DNA from: Candidatus Eremiobacteria bacterium
GTDB taxonomy: Bacteria; Vulcanimicrobiota; Vulcanimicrobiia; Vulcanimicrobiales; Vulcanimicrobiaceae
Assembly (NCBI GenBank): GCA_963737065.1
Contig: CAVTRC010000001.1
Span: 512,001 to 576,000 of the forward strand
DNA length: 64,000 nt
Direction: 5' to 3'
Shown here: positions 1 to 8,100 of the stretch, piece after piece
Layout: every line of letters starts with the position of its first letter
How positions within the stretch are numbered: position 1 is the stretch's first letter
Notes under the pieces: model-generated
Seen by the model: only the letters and a program-made list of their open reading frames with translations
What the model was told of the DNA's origin: nothing
Database searches by the model: none
Translations under genes and position numbers: made by a program

Positions 1-846
1 CACGACGTTCGGGCCGACGTTTGCGGTCGGGTCGACCGCGACGCCGGCGTCGGCGTGCACCGGCAGCGTGAGGTTTTTCACCGGGTCGAGCGCCCTAGCT
101 CCCTTGCCGGTCGCACCCGGCTCGATCTCGAGCATCGGCATACGTCCGGCAAGAATGTCGACGTGCGCGGCGAGATACTGCTCGGGACGTCCGAGGTCGA
201 TCCAGTAGTCATCGGTGGTGTAGGCGTAGAGGCCTTTGCCGCGCGCAATGATTTCGGGAAACGTCTCGCGCTCGATCGAGACGTTCCGTCCGGCGGGAAT
301 CATGTCGAGGATCTCCCGCTCGAACAAATACGTGCCGGCATTGATTTCATTCGTCGGCGCGGTTCCGGGCGGCGGCTTCTCGACGAATGCGCTGATACGG
401 CCCTGATCGTCGTGAACGACGCACCCGAACGATGAAGGATCGTCGACCCGAATGAGATGCAGCAAGCCGATGCCGCCTTCACGCTCGTGATCTTCGACCA
501 TCGCGCGCAAATCCAGGCTCGTGAGAATGTCGCCGTTGAGCACGAAGAACGGACCGGTAATGTGCTGCTCGACGTTCTTCAGCGCGCCCGCGGTACCGAG
601 CGGCGTTTCCTCGATCACGTAGGTAATGTTCATCCCGAGTTGCGAGCCGTCGCCGAAGTACCGCGTGATCGCTTCGGGCATATAGCCGGCCGGCAAAATG
701 ACGTCCCGGATGCCCGCCTCATAGAGCCGCTCCATCGTCCGCGCGAGAAACGGAACGCCCAGGATCGGAACCATCGGCTTGGGCGTGCCGTACGTGAGGG
801 GACGCAGCCGGGTGCCTTCACCACCGACCAGGACTATCGCTTGCAA
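1..846 (-). CDS. NDP-sugar synthase / mannose-1-phosphate guanylyltransferase family (3' end outside window)
   Basis: Not in the ORF track. Manual translation from TTG at 846 gives (M)QAIVLVGGEGTRLRPLTYGTPKPMVPILGVP, the nucleotidyltransferase signature. GGAG RBS upstream. Confidence 0.9.
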   Translation of the reverse strand, partial: MQAIVLVGGEGTRLRPLTYGTPKPMVPILGVPFLARTMERLYEAGIRDVILPAGYMPEAITRYFGDGSQLGMNITYVIEETPLGTAGALKNVEQHITGPFFVLNGDILTSLDLRAMVEDHEREGGIGLLHLIRVDDPSSFGCVVHDDQGRISAFVEKPPPGTAPTNEINAGTYLFEREILDMIPAGRNVSIERETFPEIIARGKGLYAYTTDDYWIDLGRPEQYLAAHVDILAGRMPMLEIEPGATGKGARALDPVKNLTLPVHADAGVAVDPTANVGPNVV

Positions 847-956
847 CGAGGGCTCCTTTCAGGGGAAGCCGCTTCTTAGTCGATAGACCGCGCCGACCCT
901 ATGCGTGCTAGTCGCGCGTGCGGCAATAATGCAGTAACATTCCGTTTACAGGCGTG

Positions 957-970
957 CGAACGTATGTTCG
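957..970. promoter_or_regulatory. LexA (SOS/Cheo) box
   Basis: CGAACGTATGTTCG is a perfect GAAC-N4-GTTC palindrome matching the Gram-positive consensus CGAACRNRYGTTCG. It lies 1 nt before a -10-like TATACT (972-977). Confidence 0.8.
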
Positions 971-983
971 ATATACTAACGGT

Positions 984-1574
984 ATGCCGCGGCGCATCTA
1001 CGATTGGAAAGCCATTCAGGAATACCACGATGAGGGCAACGATTTCGTCGAGTGCCAGAAAAAATTTCAATTCTCGCATACGGCGTGGATCAAGGCCGTC
1101 AAACGCGGGCGACTGATCGTTGAGAAACGACAGTTCGCAGATCGCCGGCGCCGCTATAATTGGTCGGAAGTCCAGACATATTACGACGAGGGCCACACGT
1201 TTAGAGAATGTCGCTTACGGTTTGGCTTCTGCGCGGCTGCGTGGGCGAAGGCCGTTCAACGCGGCGAGCTTACCGCTCGATCGCGTCTTTGGCCATGGCG
1301 AAAAGTCGTGACCCAAAGCAAATCGCGGTTGTCTGTAAAGCGCGCGCTATTGCGCGAGGGCATCCTTTCCAACAAATGCGACGAGTGTGGCCTCGATGAA
1401 TGGCGGGGAAAGCCACTCTCCATTCACGTTGATCACATCAACGGAATCCACGACGACCACCGGTTAGAGAATTTGCGAATGCTGTGTCCGAACTGCCACA
1501 GTCAGACCGAAACGTATGGCGCTAAGAACCGTCGACGTCTCCGGCTCTTGCAAGACCCGGCGCGAGGCTTGTAG
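984..1574 (+). CDS. HNH endonuclease with two tandem N-terminal repeats
   Basis: C-terminal CDECG...HVDHING...NLRMLCPNCHSQT (Zn-finger HNH). Start placed at ATG 984 (MPRRIYDW), 6 nt after TATACT and with no RBS. Confidence 0.9.
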   Translation: MPRRIYDWKAIQEYHDEGNDFVECQKKFQFSHTAWIKAVKRGRLIVEKRQFADRRRRYNWSEVQTYYDEGHTFRECRLRFGFCAAAWAKAVQRGELTARSRLWPWRKVVTQSKSRLSVKRALLREGILSNKCDECGLDEWRGKPLSIHVDHINGIHDDHRLENLRMLCPNCHSQTETYGAKNRRRLRLLQDPARGL

Positions 1575-1577
1575 TAT
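1548..1577 (+). promoter_or_regulatory. Candidate sigma70 promoter for the tRNA pair, inside the HNH 3' end
   Basis: TTGCAA (1548-1553), 18-nt spacer, TAGTAT (1572-1577), 15 nt before tRNA-Gln. Confidence 0.45.
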
Positions 1578-1592
1578 TACCGTCGCTGCCAT

Positions 1593-1667
1593 TCCCGGAT
1601 GGTGAAATGGGTATCACGCGACACTCTGGATGTCGTTTTCCTCGTTCGAGTCGAGGTCCGGGAGCCA
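1593..1667 (+). tRNA. tRNA-Gln(CTG)
   Basis: Acceptor TCCCGGA/TCCGGGA, anticodon arm CGACA-CT-CTG-GA-TGTCG, GTTCGAGT T-loop, encoded CCA. Confidence 0.95.
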
Positions 1668-1668
1668 T

Positions 1669-1744
1669 GGCCCTATCGTCTAGAGGCCTAGGACGCCGCC
1701 CTCTCACGGCGGTAACACCGGTTCGAATCCGGTTGGGGCTACCA
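1669..1744 (+). tRNA. tRNA-Glu(CTC)
   Basis: GGCCCTA acceptor, anticodon arm CCGCC-CT-CTC-AC-GGCGG, GGTTCGAATCC, encoded CCA. Confidence 0.95.
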
Positions 1745-1971
1745 TTTTCGGAAACGTTCGAGAAAGCATCGTCGGCCGTGCGCCGGGACGGAGAGGACGC
1801 CGTGGCGTGCGTTTCGTTCAAGAGTGGCGCCCGGAATACGGCGACACGCGTGCTTTTTTTTCAGCTGGTAAACGATCACGCGAAATTCGCAAAATACGAA
1901 ATCAAGTATTGTCGATTACGCCGATGGTACGACTTCGAACGAACATTCACCATAAAAGAAAGGCTACAGCC

Positions 1972-2337
1972 ATGACTGCGCGCGTCCTTCCAATCCTTAT
2001 GCTGCTTGCGACGGTTGCACTCACTGCATGCGGCGGTGGAAGCAGCAACAACACACCAGAAGCGCCAAATGCGAGTTCGAGCACGATCACTGTCACCGTT
2101 GGCGGCGCTCCGACCGCGGGCATCAGCGTGACCCTTTCGACCAGCTTGAACGGCTCGATGCCGTCGGGAACGACGATAGCGACCGGCACGACCAACGGCT
2201 CAGGCCAAGTGACCTTCAATAATCTGCCGGCGTCCGGCGCCATCTGCGATAGCGCGGAGCGCAGCAACAACAACCAAGCGCAGTTCGTCGGCGCATGTCA
2301 TCAGCCGTTTCCTTCAAGCACTACTCTCGATTTCTAG
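1972..2337 (+). CDS. Small lipoprotein, Ig-like/prealbumin-like fold
   Basis: MTARVLPILMLLATVALTAC lipobox. TGTTNGSGQVTFNNLP motif. AAGG RBS. Confidence 0.75.
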   Translation: MTARVLPILMLLATVALTACGGGSSNNTPEAPNASSSTITVTVGGAPTAGISVTLSTSLNGSMPSGTTIATGTTNGSGQVTFNNLPASGAICDSAERSNNNQAQFVGACHQPFPSSTTLDF

Positions 2338-2513
2338 CACTCCCATTGTGGCGTACGGCATCATTGCCGTACCGCCGCGCTGGTATCGCGGCCGCCTCAA
2401 GCGCTGCGACTTCGCGCGCAATTCGCCCAGGCGTCTACGGGCAGGTTGATGCTCGAAGCGGTTCGTGCGTCGGTTCGCAGTGAAGTCTAAGCATTGGCCG
2501 TTACGCTGCCGTC

Positions 2514-2831
2514 ATGATGTCCAACGGTACGATTATTACTGCGGAACCGACGGTGAAAATGTCCGGCGATATCGATATTGCGTGCGGGCCGGAACTGTCG
2601 CGTTTAGAGAAACGCCTCGTGAAATCCGATTCCGTCGTTGTGGACGTTTCGAACGTGCAATATGTCGACACGACGCTTTTGCGCTTTCTTCTCCGATTGC
2701 GGCACCATGCGAATAAAAAAGAACATAGCGCCATCAAAGTCATCGGTGTCGGAGCGCGCTTGCGGCGTATCTTCGAAATCACCGGAATGATGCGTCTGTT
2801 CGACGTCGAGTGCGCTACGTCGATGCTTTGA
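2514..2831 (+). CDS. STAS-domain anti-sigma factor antagonist
   Basis: SGDIDIA...VVVDVSNVQYVDTTLL...LRRIFEITGM. Confidence 0.85.
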   Translation: MMSNGTIITAEPTVKMSGDIDIACGPELSRLEKRLVKSDSVVVDVSNVQYVDTTLLRFLLRLRHHANKKEHSAIKVIGVGARLRRIFEITGMMRLFDVECATSML

Positions 2832-3093
2832 AACGCGCGGCGGTCAGTCCATTCCGGCGCTCGCCGCACGCGTCGGCGTGACTTTCGCACGAGTTCGGCA
2901 CACAAGGGCAATGCTGCACGAACCGGTTCGCTGAGTTCAATGATCACCCACATCCCCGCACGCATCGGCGCGAGGTATCCCCGATTCTAGGGCGGCGCGA
3001 AGCATTTTTGGAATACTCGCCGTCGCGCACAGGGAGCGACCGATTTCCCGATCTTCGCAGGGAACGCAGTTCGCGGGTTCACACTGGAAGCGA

Positions 3094-3918
3094 ATGTCGC
3101 CGCCCAATTCTCATCCGCGTTCCTATCACTACGGTGAACTGACCTGGCCGCAAGTGAAAGAAGCGGCCGCGCAACCCGTCGTCGCCGTCGTGCCGATTGC
3201 GACGATCGAGGATCACGGTCCACATCTTCCGGTCGATACCGATTTACGACTATGCACGGCGGTAGCTGAAGCGGCCGTATCGCATGCGCGCGATCGCGCG
3301 TTGCTCGTACCGCCGATCAATCACGGCTATAGTCCGCACCATATGGATTTTCCGGGCGCCATTACGATCGGCGCCCATACATTGATCGATTACGGTGTCG
3401 ACGTCTGCCGTAGTTTGGCGCATCACGGATTCCGCAAGATCCTCATCGTGAACGGTCACGGTAGTAACACGCCGTTCATCGATATCATCGCGCGCTTGAC
3501 GGTCGTCGAAAGCGATGTCCTCGCTGCGGCCATCAATTACTGGGCCGCGCCGGGCGTGCGGGAAGTGGCGGAATCGTTACGCGAGTCGGAACCGATCGGC
3601 GGGATGAACCACGCGTGTGAATTTGAAACGTCGCTGTATCTCGCGATTCGTCCCGATCTGGTCGACATGTCGAAAGCCGTTCACGAACTTTCGCACCGGC
3701 CGACGAAGAACTATTGGACGGATCTGATCGGTGGTGACGGACCGCTCGTGATGATGGAGCAATGGAGCACGCTTTCGAACTCGGGCGTGATGGGCGATCC
3801 GACGAAAGCAACCGCTGAAAAGGGCAGAAAATTGCTCGATGCCGCGTCGAACGGAATCGTTGAGGTCATCGATGAGATGCTGGCTCGCACGCCCGTGCAA
3901 CGAGTCGATCGCCACTGA
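3094..3918 (+). CDS. Creatininase/creatinine amidohydrolase family protein
   Basis: EDHGPHLPVDTD, NGHGSN, HACEFETS and GVMGDP motifs. Confidence 0.9.
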   Translation: MSPPNSHPRSYHYGELTWPQVKEAAAQPVVAVVPIATIEDHGPHLPVDTDLRLCTAVAEAAVSHARDRALLVPPINHGYSPHHMDFPGAITIGAHTLIDYGVDVCRSLAHHGFRKILIVNGHGSNTPFIDIIARLTVVESDVLAAAINYWAAPGVREVAESLRESEPIGGMNHACEFETSLYLAIRPDLVDMSKAVHELSHRPTKNYWTDLIGGDGPLVMMEQWSTLSNSGVMGDPTKATAEKGRKLLDAASNGIVEVIDEMLARTPVQRVDRH

Positions 3919-3975
3919 GCGCCGCTCTGCGGCCCAGCCGCAGGAGCACCCCGCAGCGGTCGCCGATACCAGGGA

Positions 3976-4992
3976 ATGAACACGCTCGCAGCCTTCGCAA
4001 CTGTCCTGCTGTTGTTGCCGCTTTCGACGCAGGCGCCCATCGCAAACTATCACGTAACGGCGACGTATCTACTGGGTGGTGAGGGCGGCTGGGACTACCT
4101 TACGTACGACACCTCAGCGCGGCGGCTGTTTATCTCGCGCGCAACGCACGTGATGGTTGTCGACCCGGAAACGGGCAAAATGATCGGTGACGTCGCGAAG
4201 ACGCCCGGCGTGCACGGAATCGCACTCGCGCCCGAACTCAATAAGGGGTTCACGTCGAACGGAGCCGACGGAACGGTTACGGTCTTCGAACTATCCACGC
4301 TGAAGGCGCTCGATACGATTGCGACCGGCGCGAAAAATCCCGACGGCATCGCGTACGATTCCGTCACGCAACGAGTCTTCACGTTCAACGGCGGCAGCAA
4401 CGATGCCACGGCCATCGACGCGAGGACGAACCGCGTCGTTGCGACGATTCCGCTCGGCGGCCGCCCCGAATTTCCGGCGGTCGACGGACGAGGCACAATT
4501 TACGACAACGTCGAGAGCACGAACGAAATTGTCGCGATCGACGCGCGAACCGCGCGAATCATCAAACGGTATCCGCTCGGAAGTTGTAAGAGCCCGTCGG
4601 GACTCTCAATGGATCAAGCGCATCGGCGGCTCTTCACCGCCTGCGACGGTGAGATGGGAATCGTCGACGCCGACAGCGGCGATGTCATCGCCACGGTGCC
4701 GACGGGCGCCGGAACCGACGCGACGCGATTCGATGCCAACACGGGATTCGCATTTGCATCGAACGGACGCGCCGCCACGCTGACCGTCGTTCACGAGGAC
4801 AATCCCGACCACTACACGGTCGTACAAAACGCACAAACCGTCGCCGGCGCGCGCACGATGGCACTCGACCCGGCTAGCGGCAACGTGTTTCTCGTTACCG
4901 CGAAACTCATCGAAAATCCGAACGCAACGTCGTATCGCGACCGGTACCGGGTCGTCCCCGGCACGTTCGAGCTGCTCGTCGTGTCGCCCTGA
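3976..4992 (+). CDS. Secreted YncE/YVTN beta-propeller protein
   Basis: Signal peptide. GGEGGWDYL, PGVHGIALAP and GARTMALD repeats. Confidence 0.85.
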   Translation: MNTLAAFATVLLLLPLSTQAPIANYHVTATYLLGGEGGWDYLTYDTSARRLFISRATHVMVVDPETGKMIGDVAKTPGVHGIALAPELNKGFTSNGADGTVTVFELSTLKALDTIATGAKNPDGIAYDSVTQRVFTFNGGSNDATAIDARTNRVVATIPLGGRPEFPAVDGRGTIYDNVESTNEIVAIDARTARIIKRYPLGSCKSPSGLSMDQAHRRLFTACDGEMGIVDADSGDVIATVPTGAGTDATRFDANTGFAFASNGRAATLTVVHEDNPDHYTVVQNAQTVAGARTMALDPASGNVFLVTAKLIENPNATSYRDRYRVVPGTFELLVVSP

Positions 4993-5053
4993 ACGACTGC
5001 TTGCGAAGCGAGCTGAACGCCGCGCAGTGACGTTTCACCGCATGTCATGTAAG

Positions 5054-5081
5054 GAAGCCGCCGGAGTACTCCGGCGGCTTC
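5054..5081. terminator. Bidirectional terminator-like palindrome
   Basis: GAAGCCGCCGGAG-TA-CTCCGGCGGCTTC between convergent genes. Confidence 0.7.
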
Positions 5082-5103
5082 GTGTTGCTTGCGTCGGAGA
5101 TCG

Positions 5104-8100
5104 TTAGATCTTGACCGTAAGCTGGAAGAACGCGGTGAACGGATTCGGGATGGTGCCTGCCGCGTTTCCGAAGGCCTGGCTCGGGATATACGATTGTGTT
5201 TGCCACGGCCGCGGAGCGACGCCGTTGGCCGCCACATCGTTTGGACTCGTACCGTTGTAGAAGTTTGAGACGTATTCGCCGACGCCCGGTGGACCATTTG
5301 TATAGTAGTCGCAAACGTTCGGTCCCGGCGCGTAGGCTGTCGTCCACGGTGCCGACGTTCCGCCGAAGCACGTGTGGAACAGGTTCGCGAGCGTTACGTT
5401 AACGGAAATCCGCGGCGAAACATCATACGACAAGCCGAGATTGCCGACCATGATCCACGGTTCGCGGAACTGGCCGGGTAGCGCAAACGAGCCCGTTTGC
5501 GGATTCGGGATGTACAACTGACCCGCGGCGTTCGACAAGGTGCCGACGGCCGTCAGTGCATCGCACTTGAACGGATCGGTACCCGGCGAAAGGGCCGTGA
5601 TTGGAGCGATCGGAACCGTCGCTCCACCGACGACGCGCGTCGCTGAACTGGAATTGGCGCCGCACGTGCGCGGGTCGATCCCGATGATGTCGAGTGGGCC
5701 GCCATAACCCGGCCCCTGAGCGAGCGACATCGAGAAGGTCGCGGCGAACTTTTGTTTGCGCCAATTCAGGAGCCACGAGAGGTTCCACGGGACATCGAAG
5801 TACGTCGTTCCTGGATTGCTGGTAGGCGACAATCCGAGATTGCCGGCCGGATACCACCCGCTCGTATTGAGCAACCCTTGAGTGGGGCTGTTGTAATAGG
5901 GGTTGGTGATCGGTGTACCCGGCGTCGGGAGCGTGGCGCATGTTGCGGGCGTTGCAGTTCCCGGCGAGACCGTTCCGGCTGCATCAGTGCCGCCCGAGCA
6001 GTAGAATGGCGAACCGCCGCCGCCCTTCGTCAGGACGTTGTATTGCGAGATCGCTTGATTTACGGCGTTCAACTGATTTTGCCCGAACCACGGCACGTAT
6101 TGAACGCGCGCGAAGGTGTAGGTAATGGCGACTTGCGTTGAGAGACCGTCTTTTGCAAAATCGCCCTTGGTGAATGCAAACTCCGCGCCTTCCGAACGGA
6201 AGTTGCCAACCGGCGCTTGCGTTACGAAGTTCGGTCCGAGGTAATTCTGCTCTTGATAGCCATAGGTCCAGTTGTAGAACGGCGTCAGCTTTAGGTTCAT
6301 ATCCGTTCCGCGGAAGTGGTGCTCGAATGAGAGATCGGCTTGCGTTGCACTCATCGCGGGGATCGGATGGAACGGCGAGTAGAAGCCCAGTGGCAACGTA
6401 GCATTCCACGTGTTCAACGAGTTGCCTGAGACGTTAAGATACTGCACCGACGCCGAGATCGGCGGCTGCGTAAAGCGCCCGATCGATGCGCGCCACACGG
6501 TGTCCGGAGACTGCGTGTACGTCATTGAGAGACGCGGAGAGAGATCTGAGATCGTGTATTGCGCGGGCGAGATTGCCGAGAACGGCGGATGCGCATATCC
6601 TGCCGGGATCCCTGCCGGATAGTTGTCCGCGGCCGGAAGGGGCGTTCCTGCAGCGCACGTAGGCGTAAAAATCACCTTTGCGGGCGGAGGCTGCCCCGGC
6701 AACAACGCACGCGTCAGCACGGTGCCCGACGCATTCGTGCAAACGTCGTTCTGTACGATTTGCGCGTAGAAGTCGGTCGCTATGCCCGGATTGGACACGA
6801 GATCGTACTCGTAGTTTTCGTAGCGAAGCTGCCCATTGAAGAGCCAGCGATCGTTGGGGCGCCATTGATCGCTCAGCGACACGAACGTAAACTTCGGCTT
6901 GACGGTATTGTACGTACCGCTCGCGTTCCCGTTCCACAGCGTCACGTACTGTGCACCGGCCAATGCTGCCGCACTTCCAGCGGGCACCCCCGGAACACCG
7001 CTCGACTGGATCGTCGCCGCATCCGTTATCGATGCTGAGGAACACGGCAGCGCCGTGCCCGTCGCGGCGTAACACGTGAAGAGTCCGCCGCTTTGTGAGA
7101 CGAGACCAACCGGAGAGGCGCCCGCGATGTATCCGGTGTTGTTGAAGCGGACGACGTTCGCGGTCGTATAATTTGCAGTGAGTTGCAACAGATGTTTGCT
7201 CGTCAGTTGATCGACGAGTTCGAGTTGTCCGCCGCCGGTATGCGTGATCAGGTCGTAATTTGCGGCGATTGCGCCGGCGCCGGGACACGGACCGGTGCAG
7301 CCGATGAAGTACGTCTGCAACGCGTTTTGCGCGCCGGATTGCGTCCAGTCCGAGAAGAACGTGTACCCGAACACACGCGCAAATGCATTGCTGGAGAATT
7401 GGTGGGTGTACTGCAATTTCACGATGCTTGTGTCGTTGAAAATGCCGTCGCGATTATCCGCAGGTATTTCGGCATTGAACGCACGGTTCGGATTGCTGTC
7501 CGGCTGATAGTAGCTCTGAGCCTTCAGACCCGCGACCGGTGTTCCGAACGGCGCGTTGAAGACGATGGCGTCCGTGTACGCTGGGTACGTGGGCGCCGAA
7601 AAGCTATTCGGCACCGGTGTACACGCTGCGCCACTGGCGAGAAGACCCGTTGCCGGATTGCAATACGGTTGCCCGAACATTGCAAGCGTTGCCAGTCCGT
7701 ACCCGCCGATGTCGTTGAACGAGCTATAGTACTGAGAGTTCAGCATCGACGTGCTGCCGAGCAGCTGAATATCGTCCGACGTGCCGTTCTTTTGCGGGAT
7801 GCGGAAGTGGAAGTTCGCGACGTTCTCGCGGTCGGCGATCTGCGCGAGGTTGATTGCGGACGGCACGACGATTCCCGGATAAGGGATGTAGCAATTCGGT
7901 GCGCCGCCCAGGTCGGCTTGATAGTATGTAAGCGGAGTCGCCGGTACGCCGCCGCCCCACAGCGGGTTTGGATCGAGCGTTGTTCCCGGCGTGCATTCTG
8001 CGCTGAGCGACGGTATTCCGAGGCCGTATGTCGCTCTCGCGGCGTTGCTCTGACCCGTATAAACGTTGTTCGGATCGGTTGTCCACGGTGCGCCGTTGTC

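Follow-up and report, generated by a model that had tools for sequence, protein, structure and literature searches.

A putative phage-derived, tRNA-linked HNH endonuclease cassette of homing type with a LexA-type operator in Eremiobacterota

An HNH endonuclease gene between a LexA-type operator and a tRNA pair

A gene for an HNH endonuclease of 196 amino acids (aa), lying between a LexA-type operator and a pair of tRNA genes in an Eremiobacterota chromosome, is interpreted here with moderate confidence as a phage-derived, tRNA-linked and damage-gated cassette of homing type. The window, i.e. the whole stretch analysed, covered 64,000 nucleotides (nt; C1:512001-576000) of genome G000 (3.08 Mb, 60% G+C, two contigs); other G numbers designate the genomes of relatives and L numbers designate loci. 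Near homologues and related contigs carried the names Candidatus Baltobacteraceae, Eremiobacterota and Vulcanimicrobiota in their sources. The cassette would behave as a selfish, exchangeable allele, silenced by repair-linked repressors, at a fixed chromosomal site between an NTP-transferase gene and the promoter of tRNA-Gln(CTG)/tRNA-Glu(CTC), within one Eremiobacterota family (Baltobacteraceae according to source names). The HNH gene is swapped between related soil bacteria, and this suggests a selfish gene that would be turned on during DNA repair.

The conserved block starts on the left with the divergently oriented NTP-transferase gene (1..846, minus strand, far end beyond the window; Pfam NTP_transferase, E 3.2e-50). 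A perfect palindrome of LexA-operator type, CGAACGTATGTTCG (957..970, not assigned to a strand), was recognised from the sequence and by comparison. One base past it, a -10-like hexamer TATACT was read from the sequence (972..977, plus strand, as are all features to its right), 6 nt ahead of the ATG of the HNH gene (984..1574; list of open reading frames (ORFs), Pfam and homologue starts). The HNH stop is followed after 18 nt by tRNA-Gln (anticodon CTG, 1593..1667) and then by tRNA-Glu (anticodon CTC, 1669..1744), which forms the right edge of the conserved block; both were identified with ARAGORN and Rfam, and each is the sole gene for its anticodon in the genome. The ORF list gave the HNH frame from a GTG at 954, but ATG 984 is supported as the start because homologues begin at the same Met. 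Between TATACT and this ATG stands AACGGT (978-983), without a purine-rich Shine-Dalgarno stretch, and the placement of the hexamer implies that the HNH mRNA would be leaderless. The layout in relatives was alike: box, TATAAT or TATACT, 6-8 nt, ATG.

A first-pass annotation, made from the letters of the window, had listed the palindrome, TATACT, an ATG without ribosome-binding site, the HNH ORF and a tRNA-Gln 18 nt after its stop, all of which were recovered in place. It had also stated that no integrase, transposase or methylase and no duplicated tRNA end are present. This held for the integrase and for the tRNA-Glu 3' end; as regards transposases and methylases, the ORF translations of positions 1-6000 were read. 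The Phage_integrase profile gave five matches in the genome and none in the window, serine recombinases being outside this search, and the tRNA-Glu 3' end occurred in the window as a single copy at up to three mismatches. A genomic island or prophage integrated at the tRNA was rejected on these two grounds.

The order of divergent NTP-transferase, operator, HNH gene, tRNA-Gln and tRNA-Glu was conserved in relatives and in contig loci. The NTP-transferase gene adjoined the HNH gene in 79 of 80 contig loci and tRNA-Gln lay at most 600 nt on the 3' side in 70 of the 80, the loci without a tRNA-Gln call being contig ends, tandem copies or cases where ARAGORN had called the tRNAs otherwise. In the phylum as a whole, 207 of 401 genomes (eight unpublished ones included) had the gene: these were 198 of the 296 genomes of the window's family and 8 of the 30 genomes of one other family, whereas none turned up among the 74 genomes of 19 further families. 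One fixed locus across the family, together with a single copy in the window's genome, speaks for another explanation, that of a domesticated SOS nuclease: an old capture of a phage HNH gene would now serve the host during the damage response, as a structure- or site-specific nuclease of repair or recombination or as a damage-triggered nuclease directed against phages or causing self-killing, and its adjacency to tRNA genes would be a relic. We consider domestication rather unlikely. About a third of the family's genomes had no match, which counts against it, and further evidence on both sides is given below with the data from which it arises.

Exchange, duplication and decay of HNH alleles

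HNH alleles are replaced with sharp borders between conserved flanks. NTP-transferases that were 98-99% identical stood beside HNH proteins sharing 52-57% identity (e.g. L065/L114 and L057/L094); DNA identity, about 95% in the flank, fell to 45-70% precisely where the NTP-transferase gene starts, and rose again at the tRNAs. Likewise, flanks conserved at 87% and 95% surrounded an HNH gene at 61% in the pair L095/L103. The reverse case was found in L084/L095, with an HNH and tRNA stretch 96-100% identical adjoining a flank at about 88%, and a synonymous divergence (dS) of 0.049 for the HNH gene versus 0.47 for the flank gene. Divergent alleles in near-identical flanks, and the reverse, would be unexpected for a housekeeping repair gene.

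Tandem second HNH copies, placed between the first copy and tRNA-Gln, were present at 14 loci (L011/L025 of G023, L061, L066, L069, L073, L087, L092, L094, L100, L101, L104, L106, L107 and L112). They often lacked the first of the two N-terminal repeats of the protein and formed a clade of their own; the alleles fell into supported clades. Such duplications speak against domestication, as does decay in half of the close relatives: the HNH copies of 16 close relatives comprised 8 intact ones and 8 that were interrupted or truncated (G003, G006, G009, G010, G011, G018, G021 and G022). In G012 and G020 the ORF was lost and the box was kept.

Short elements resembling miniature inverted-repeat transposable elements, of the form GTCATCC(C/T)GAGC...GAAGGAC, were observed between the operator and the HNH start at L054, L068, L074 and L086, and the same elements fill the HNH-less allele of G012 (L127). 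On the other side of the block, DNA located 3' of tRNA-Glu (the window from 1745; loci L035-L114) was mostly unalignable between genomes whose upstream flanks were about 90-95% identical; a variable region therefore has its border at the tRNA pair.

Relationship with phage tRNA-array nucleases

Homologues of the HNH protein numbered 3521 at E <= 1e-3. The best PADLOC profile was 'HEase' (homing endonuclease; E 4.4e-16), PHROG 10822 matched at E 2e-29, and 239 GenBank phage records matched the HNH protein. A scan of viral contigs, based on protein motifs alone, yielded 62 loci. One of them (L183), which has a G+C content of 59% and the same pair of tRNA genes, resembles an Eremiobacterota contig and was set aside; the other 61 represented 50 distinct loci. 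tRNA genes were found within 3 kb in 46 of these 50 phage loci; a tRNA gene on the same strand lay within 300 nt in 40, within 100 nt in 33 and within 30 nt in 15, and 412 of the 414 tRNAs were on the HNH strand. Annotated HNH homologues of phages OSY-STA and Francesca have tRNA genes on both sides: in the T5-like phage OSY-STA the homologue starts 16 nt past tRNA-Ala, and Francesca gp94 exactly fills the gap between tRNA-Glu and tRNA-Gly. T5 hegA (T5.075), in the tRNA region of T5, shared 40% identity over aa 114-185 (E 4.9e-17).

In a tree with phage HNHs (91 columns), the bacterial clade was nested among phage tRNA-array HNHs with values of 93-94 in the Shimodaira-Hasegawa-like approximate likelihood ratio test and no starred branch, the HNH-domain tree having few well-supported forks. 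All nearest relatives outside the clade were HNH genes of phage tRNA arrays, a further point against a domesticated host gene. The first-pass annotation had proposed a tRNA-linked nuclease cassette, possibly a selfish homing element to be sought by comparing alleles. The link with tRNAs proved not to be accidental, since phage relatives sit inside tRNA arrays and T5 hegA is homologous; among bacteria, tRNA adjacency was confirmed in the form of one fixed family-wide locus rather than scattered positions beside many tRNAs. The comparison of relatives also bore out the exchange of HNH genes between conserved flanks and the existence of HNH-less and decayed alleles.

A second family of HNH proteins, in which about 180 aa combine a zinc ribbon and an HNH domain, was observed directly ahead of tRNA-Thr(tgt) in four relatives (L022, L023, L030 and L033). 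Its promoter is of the type GCCA-N6-TGGC plus TAGCAT, with the palindrome found at recA (see below), and a decayed remnant of the family is present in G000 (C2:112030-112300, minus strand). The tRNA-Thr(tgt) of G000 (C2:111945-112029) is long for its kind, with 85 nt as called by ARAGORN and 78-86 nt in relatives. This second family grouped with other phage HNHs (support 96). Two separate HNH captures may have taken place; the support for this view is weak at the tRNA-Gln clade (93-94) and better at the tRNA-Thr clade (96).

Domains of the HNH protein and selection acting on it

The Pfam HNH domain (PF01844, a nuclease domain of His-Me finger type that contains two CxxC pairs; 1377..1505) matched aa 132-174 at 24.4 bits, the cut-off being 21.4. 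Residues C132, C135, H151, N163, C168, C171 and H172 were invariant in 34 of 34 aligned homologues; in this family such positions are the catalytic His, the metal-binding Asn/His and the two CxxC zinc pairs. The N-terminal part consists of two repeats, aa 3-49 (990..1130) and aa 55-101 (1146..1286), sharing 49% identity (E 2e-17), each predicted to be a three-helix module resembling a helix-turn-helix (HTH). In the AlphaFold2 model the helices span aa 8-16, 21-28 and 32-40 in repeat 1 and aa 60-68, 73-80 and 84-93 in repeat 2; aa 139-174 form short strands and a helix, and the chain is disordered from aa 178 on (predicted local distance difference test score <50 for aa 178-196). Many relatives retain only repeat 2 and the HNH domain.

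Structural comparisons gave weak fold matches of repeat 1 to HTH domains of resolvase/Hin/Tc3 type (Z 4.0-4.7) and of repeat 2 to the SETMAR DNA-binding domain (Z 4.0). In a wide fold search the best Z was 4.7 and all matches at this level fell on the small HTH repeats; fold matches to the HNH domains of McrA, Cap5 and ZRANB3 were weak (Foldseek E >1, Z 3.5). Foldseek against the PDB returned no match at E <= 0.001, and a sequence search of the PDB with the family profile none at E <= 0.01. The type II Zorya protein ZorE was also tried as a candidate and rejected: the match amounted to the HNH motif alone, with 23.6 bits against a cut-off of 600, and the PADLOC ZorE profile covered only aa 131-178, Zor genes in the neighbourhood being outside this comparison.

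Ratios of nonsynonymous to synonymous substitution (dN/dS) within allele clades were 0.07-0.19 in the 10 pairs, out of 13, that had a usable dS. Two of the remaining pairs, with dS <0.05, gave 0.33 and 0.57, and in one dS was saturated. The intact HNH protein is, to judge from these ratios, under purifying selection. Such strong selection and the many invariant residues are in favour of the domesticated nuclease.

An HNH DNase domain placed under a LexA-type operator also recalls colicins E7 and E9, which are SOS-induced HNH bacteriocins, and the gene could accordingly be read as a damage-induced bacteriocin- or toxin-like DNase acting in the same manner. The locus leaves no space for an immunity gene, with the HNH stop 18 nt from tRNA-Gln and the divergent NTP-transferase gene upstream. 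Moreover, the 196 aa are taken up by the two HTH-like repeats and the HNH domain, and the translation showed neither a receptor-binding or translocation part nor a signal peptide. This explanation is regarded as very improbable.

Two palindromes and the control of the HNH gene

One gene in the genome (C1:2054495-2055160) joins a LexA HTH with an S24 peptidase domain; another S24 match was found at C1:967128 and a weak HTH match at C1:708831. GAAC-type boxes were present upstream of lexA in 28 of 28 relatives (two unpublished genomes are excluded from this count), mostly as CGAAC-N4-GTTTG or CAAAC-N4-GTTCG, and in all 28 the interval between lexA and a divergent LysM gene held two to four CGAAC-N4-GTTYG or CAAAC-N4-GTTCG boxes. 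An exact GAAC-type box stood just ahead of the start of imuA in 27 of 29 relatives; the label imuA is based on an NCBIfam ImuA match (E 4.8e-15), which is under the curated cut-off, and on the IMS-family gene next to it. At recA, a GAAC-type box was found in merely 2 of 30 relatives, which counts against the motif at core SOS genes.

In G000, where gene calls were those of a crude ORF set, an identical CGAACGTATGTTCG precedes a radical SAM gene of the Rv2578c family, and similar boxes precede a Lhr helicase gene and imuA/imuB. Perfect boxes numbered 27, 9 of them in the 14% non-coding share of this gene set (p 0.009), a count in which the imuA box, truly intergenic, was tallied as coding. GAAC-N4-GTTC is, on these comparisons, very likely the LexA operator of this lineage, to which LexA would bind. 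The first-pass annotation had read the box as a LexA operator, and the boxes at lexA and imuA agree with this. The sharing of the box with imuA/imuB, Lhr and a radical SAM gene of repair type speaks for the damage-gated cassette and also for a domesticated nuclease. In passages of a report on M. tuberculosis, the RecA-dependent set induced by mitomycin C comprises imuA', imuB, dnaE2, a DNA repair photolyase, five putative HNH endonucleases and lexA (PMC8151990), and a passage of another report ties an HNH nuclease to programmed death in M. smegmatis (PMC9416677); the RecA dependence of the former and the role of the latter point the same way.

Two gene copies of G000, read from their translations as IS21-type istA transposases (C1:1245619 and C1:2193606), also have a perfect CGAAC-N4-GTTCG box, 1-4 nt ahead of the start. 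The box at these genes could represent SOS control of transposition or a part of the element's end.

A census of operators was carried out on 77 loci at which both the HNH gene and the flank gene are full-length, counting exact boxes at most 120 nt from the start. The GAAC box alone was found at 26 HNH promoters, an exact GCCA-N6-TGGC alone at 36, both at 3 and neither at 12. Only 29 of the 77 loci thus had an exact LexA-type box, which occurs with varying N4 in the window's own genus and its neighbours, and another palindrome stood in its place in 36. This second palindrome has the form (A/G)TGCCA-N6-TGGCA(T/C) and is located about 35-45 nt ahead of the HNH ATG, with TAGCAT about 7 nt ahead. 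In relatives, a TGCCA-N6-TGGCA box was present at recA in 26 of 30 (at most one mismatch), at lexA in 17 of 28 and at imuA in 0 of 29. G000 holds six such sites, four of them intergenic: at recA (C2:171213), at lexA (C1:2054332) and, at C2:283661 and C2:307798, in the interval between a helicase-nuclease and an SNF2 helicase gene and at a gene of no known family. A 239-aa gene behind one TGCCA-type box had no Pfam or NCBIfam match.

Two repair-linked regulons thus appear to exist, the HNH gene belonging to one or the other, and TGCCA-N6-TGGCA is a candidate for the motif of a second repair regulon of Eremiobacterota. On 62 loci, the operator types required two changes on the flank-gene tree and four on the HNH tree. 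Since the palindrome that replaces the LexA box at HNH genes is the one preceding recA, repair-linked control would have been kept despite the change of operator. This persistence is again favourable to the domesticated nuclease. A second LexA as binder of the second palindrome was rejected for G000, in which only one gene has both HTH and S24 domains. A sigma-54 reading of the TGGCAC in the palindrome was set aside on account of the consensus spacing. Between the TGCCA-type box and the lexA start of G000 (L001/L145), two G+C-rich repeat copies of about 75 nt were observed (C1:2054370-2054530), which place this box at -217 in G000, compared with about -43 in sister genomes.

The tRNA pair and its own promoter

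A promoter-like element of the tRNA pair (1548..1577) was read from the sequence and from its conservation. It consists of TTGCAA (1548-1553), 18 nt and TAGTAT (1572-1577), and overlaps the last HNH codons: TTGCAA encodes the conserved C-terminal Leu-Gln of the HNH protein, and the -10 hexamer TAGTAT opens with the HNH stop TAG (1572-1574). A strict pattern of this promoter was matched at 45 of 70 loci, and the HNH stop was the first triplet of the -10 hexamer in 27 of these. The gap from stop to tRNA was constant at 13-25 nt because the end of the ORF overlaps the tRNA promoter. The same TTGCAA/TAGTAT element precedes tRNA-Gln in the HNH-less alleles of G012 and G024.

The LexA-controlled promoter might instead serve mainly the tRNAs, providing extra tRNA-Gln(CUG) and tRNA-Glu(CUC) after damage, with the HNH ORF as a passenger or spacer. 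A terminator scan of 840-1980 called none; without a terminator between the ORF and the tRNAs, read-through is likely. Each tRNA is the sole gene for its anticodon, and HNH-less G012 and G020 keep the GAAC-type box upstream of the tRNAs, in agreement with such a role. These are, however, the only two box-bearing HNH-less alleles seen, and the HNH protein is under purifying selection. Moreover, a conserved promoter-like element of their own precedes the tRNAs, even in alleles without the HNH gene; they are therefore not simply an SOS-controlled pair and would not depend on the LexA-controlled promoter. The same tRNA pair also occurs in another family of the order, in a different context and without this arrangement. 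We consider a promoter dedicated to the tRNAs improbable.

A model of damage-gated homing and its weak points

For the phage-derived cassette of homing type, the following course of events can be proposed. LexA, bound to CGAACGTATGTTCG abutting the -10 hexamer of a leaderless promoter, would keep the HNH gene off, the identity of the operator being deduced by comparison. Upon DNA damage, self-cleavage of LexA would release a burst of HNH protein. The two HTH-like repeats would place the nuclease on a specific site, probably at or near alleles of the tRNA locus without this HNH variant, as may be supposed from the family to which it belongs. The resulting nick or break would be repaired by RecA-dependent recombination with the NTP-transferase and tRNA flanks as homology arms, so that the cassette would be copied. 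As no terminator was called ahead of the tRNAs, the 3' end of the HNH transcript would probably be made by tRNA processing.

Several points weigh against this model. The sigma-70 scan of 840-1980 called no promoter, neither for the HNH gene nor for the tRNAs, and both promoters were therefore assigned from conservation rather than from tool calls. By itself, the box is not above chance within the window: one exact CGAAC-N4-GTTCG was present in the 64 kb against 0.49 expected, and 35 of 100 shuffles had at least one, so that it gains weight only when set against other genes and genomes. The 12 of 77 orthologous HNH promoters with neither palindrome in exact form also have to be considered. The fold matches were weak (Z <5) and no claim on the fold is based on them. 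The gene has kept to a single locus in a single family (198 of 296 genomes), and a moderate correlation (r 0.43, Mantel p 0.001) links the protein distances of HNH and flank; much of its history is therefore vertical, as for a domesticated gene. General recombination at an island boundary could yield allele exchange without homing, and some of the frameshifts in interrupted copies may be assembly errors. No pristine empty site was found among the alleles examined, the HNH-less ones resembling deletions. Finally, the model would need a way for a chromosomal homing endonuclease to meet a target allele in another cell.

A more far-reaching proposition is put forward tentatively and with low confidence. 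In such damage-gated chromosomal homing, a phage-type HNH gene residing on a core tRNA promoter would be released only upon induction of the recombination machinery, each cut thereby yielding a copy of the cassette, and its gating would be important enough to be rewired between LexA (CGAAC-N4-GTTCG) and an undescribed TGCCA-N6-TGGCA regulon, the latter and not LexA apparently controlling recA in the phylum. If cleavage and induction hold true, the locus would exemplify, in nature, a selfish nuclease whose timing follows the recombination state of its host, and it would offer a simple, testable model of how such genes limit toxicity and secure their copying. These data also give a first comparative sketch of damage regulation in uncultured Eremiobacterota, with a LexA box of Gram-positive type at lexA and imuA and a different palindrome at recA. 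A literature search, with most subscription journals outside it, found no paper on Eremiobacterota together with LexA. The same search found no description of a chromosomal, family-wide fixed site at core tRNAs, of a LexA- or recA-type operator on a leaderless promoter, of an ORF end merged with a tRNA promoter, or of a swap between two regulons.

Comparison with known systems

The locus had been put forward in the first-pass annotation as the best candidate for an undescribed system. This cannot be maintained in that form: passages in print already deal with HNH homing endonucleases of tRNA regions (PMC2330249, PMC6409571, PMC6582537) and with RecA-dependent putative HNH endonucleases (PMC8151990).

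The nearest likeness is with HegA of phage T5, which has a homologous HNH domain and is encoded by a free-standing gene that directly adjoins tRNA genes of the same strand. HTH-type InterPro domains are given in the T5 record, so that T5 HegA too joins an HNH domain with a DNA-binding part of HTH type. In contrast to hegA, the window gene is part of a bacterial chromosome and has a canonical single-copy tRNA pair, rather than a phage array, as its neighbour. It encodes two tandem N-terminal repeats, genes of its type have a LexA-type or recA-type operator on a predicted leaderless promoter, and the end of the ORF overlaps the tRNA promoter. To judge from the names hegE and hegF in the T5 record, hegA may be F-TflI. 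The F-Tfl enzymes of T5 are described, in a passage of the report on them, as homing endonucleases in a tRNA gene cluster (PMC2330249). Low and tightly controlled expression as well as tRNA-based processing of transcripts are also discussed there for T4 and T5 phages.

SegB of phage T4, as described in the passages available, resembles the window gene in being encoded by a free-standing nuclease gene among tRNA genes and in favouring the inheritance of itself and of the flanking tRNA region. It differs by its GIY-YIG fold and by homing during phage co-infection, and no SOS control is described for it in these passages. HNH genes in tRNA clusters of mycobacterial chromosomes have been read, in passages of two reports, as phage-derived homing genes (PMC6582537, PMC6409571). 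The mycobacterial and mycobacteriophage HNH genes belong to large, horizontally acquired tRNA arrays, whereas a core tRNA-Gln/tRNA-Glu pair at a family-wide fixed locus is involved here. The passages on these arrays mention no damage-responsive operator, and the likeness is one of description, not of sequence.

The HNH genes of the RecA/LexA-dependent set of M. tuberculosis belong to a set whose make-up, in the passages describing it, is like that of the GAAC-box set of G000; here again the comparison is by description and not by sequence. These damage-induced HNHs presumably represent the 13E12 repeat family, a term not found in the source paper. To our knowledge, no tRNA linkage has been reported for them. 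The Eremiobacterota locus joins two known things, the homing endonucleases found among phage tRNA genes and the SOS-induced HNH genes of mycobacteria.

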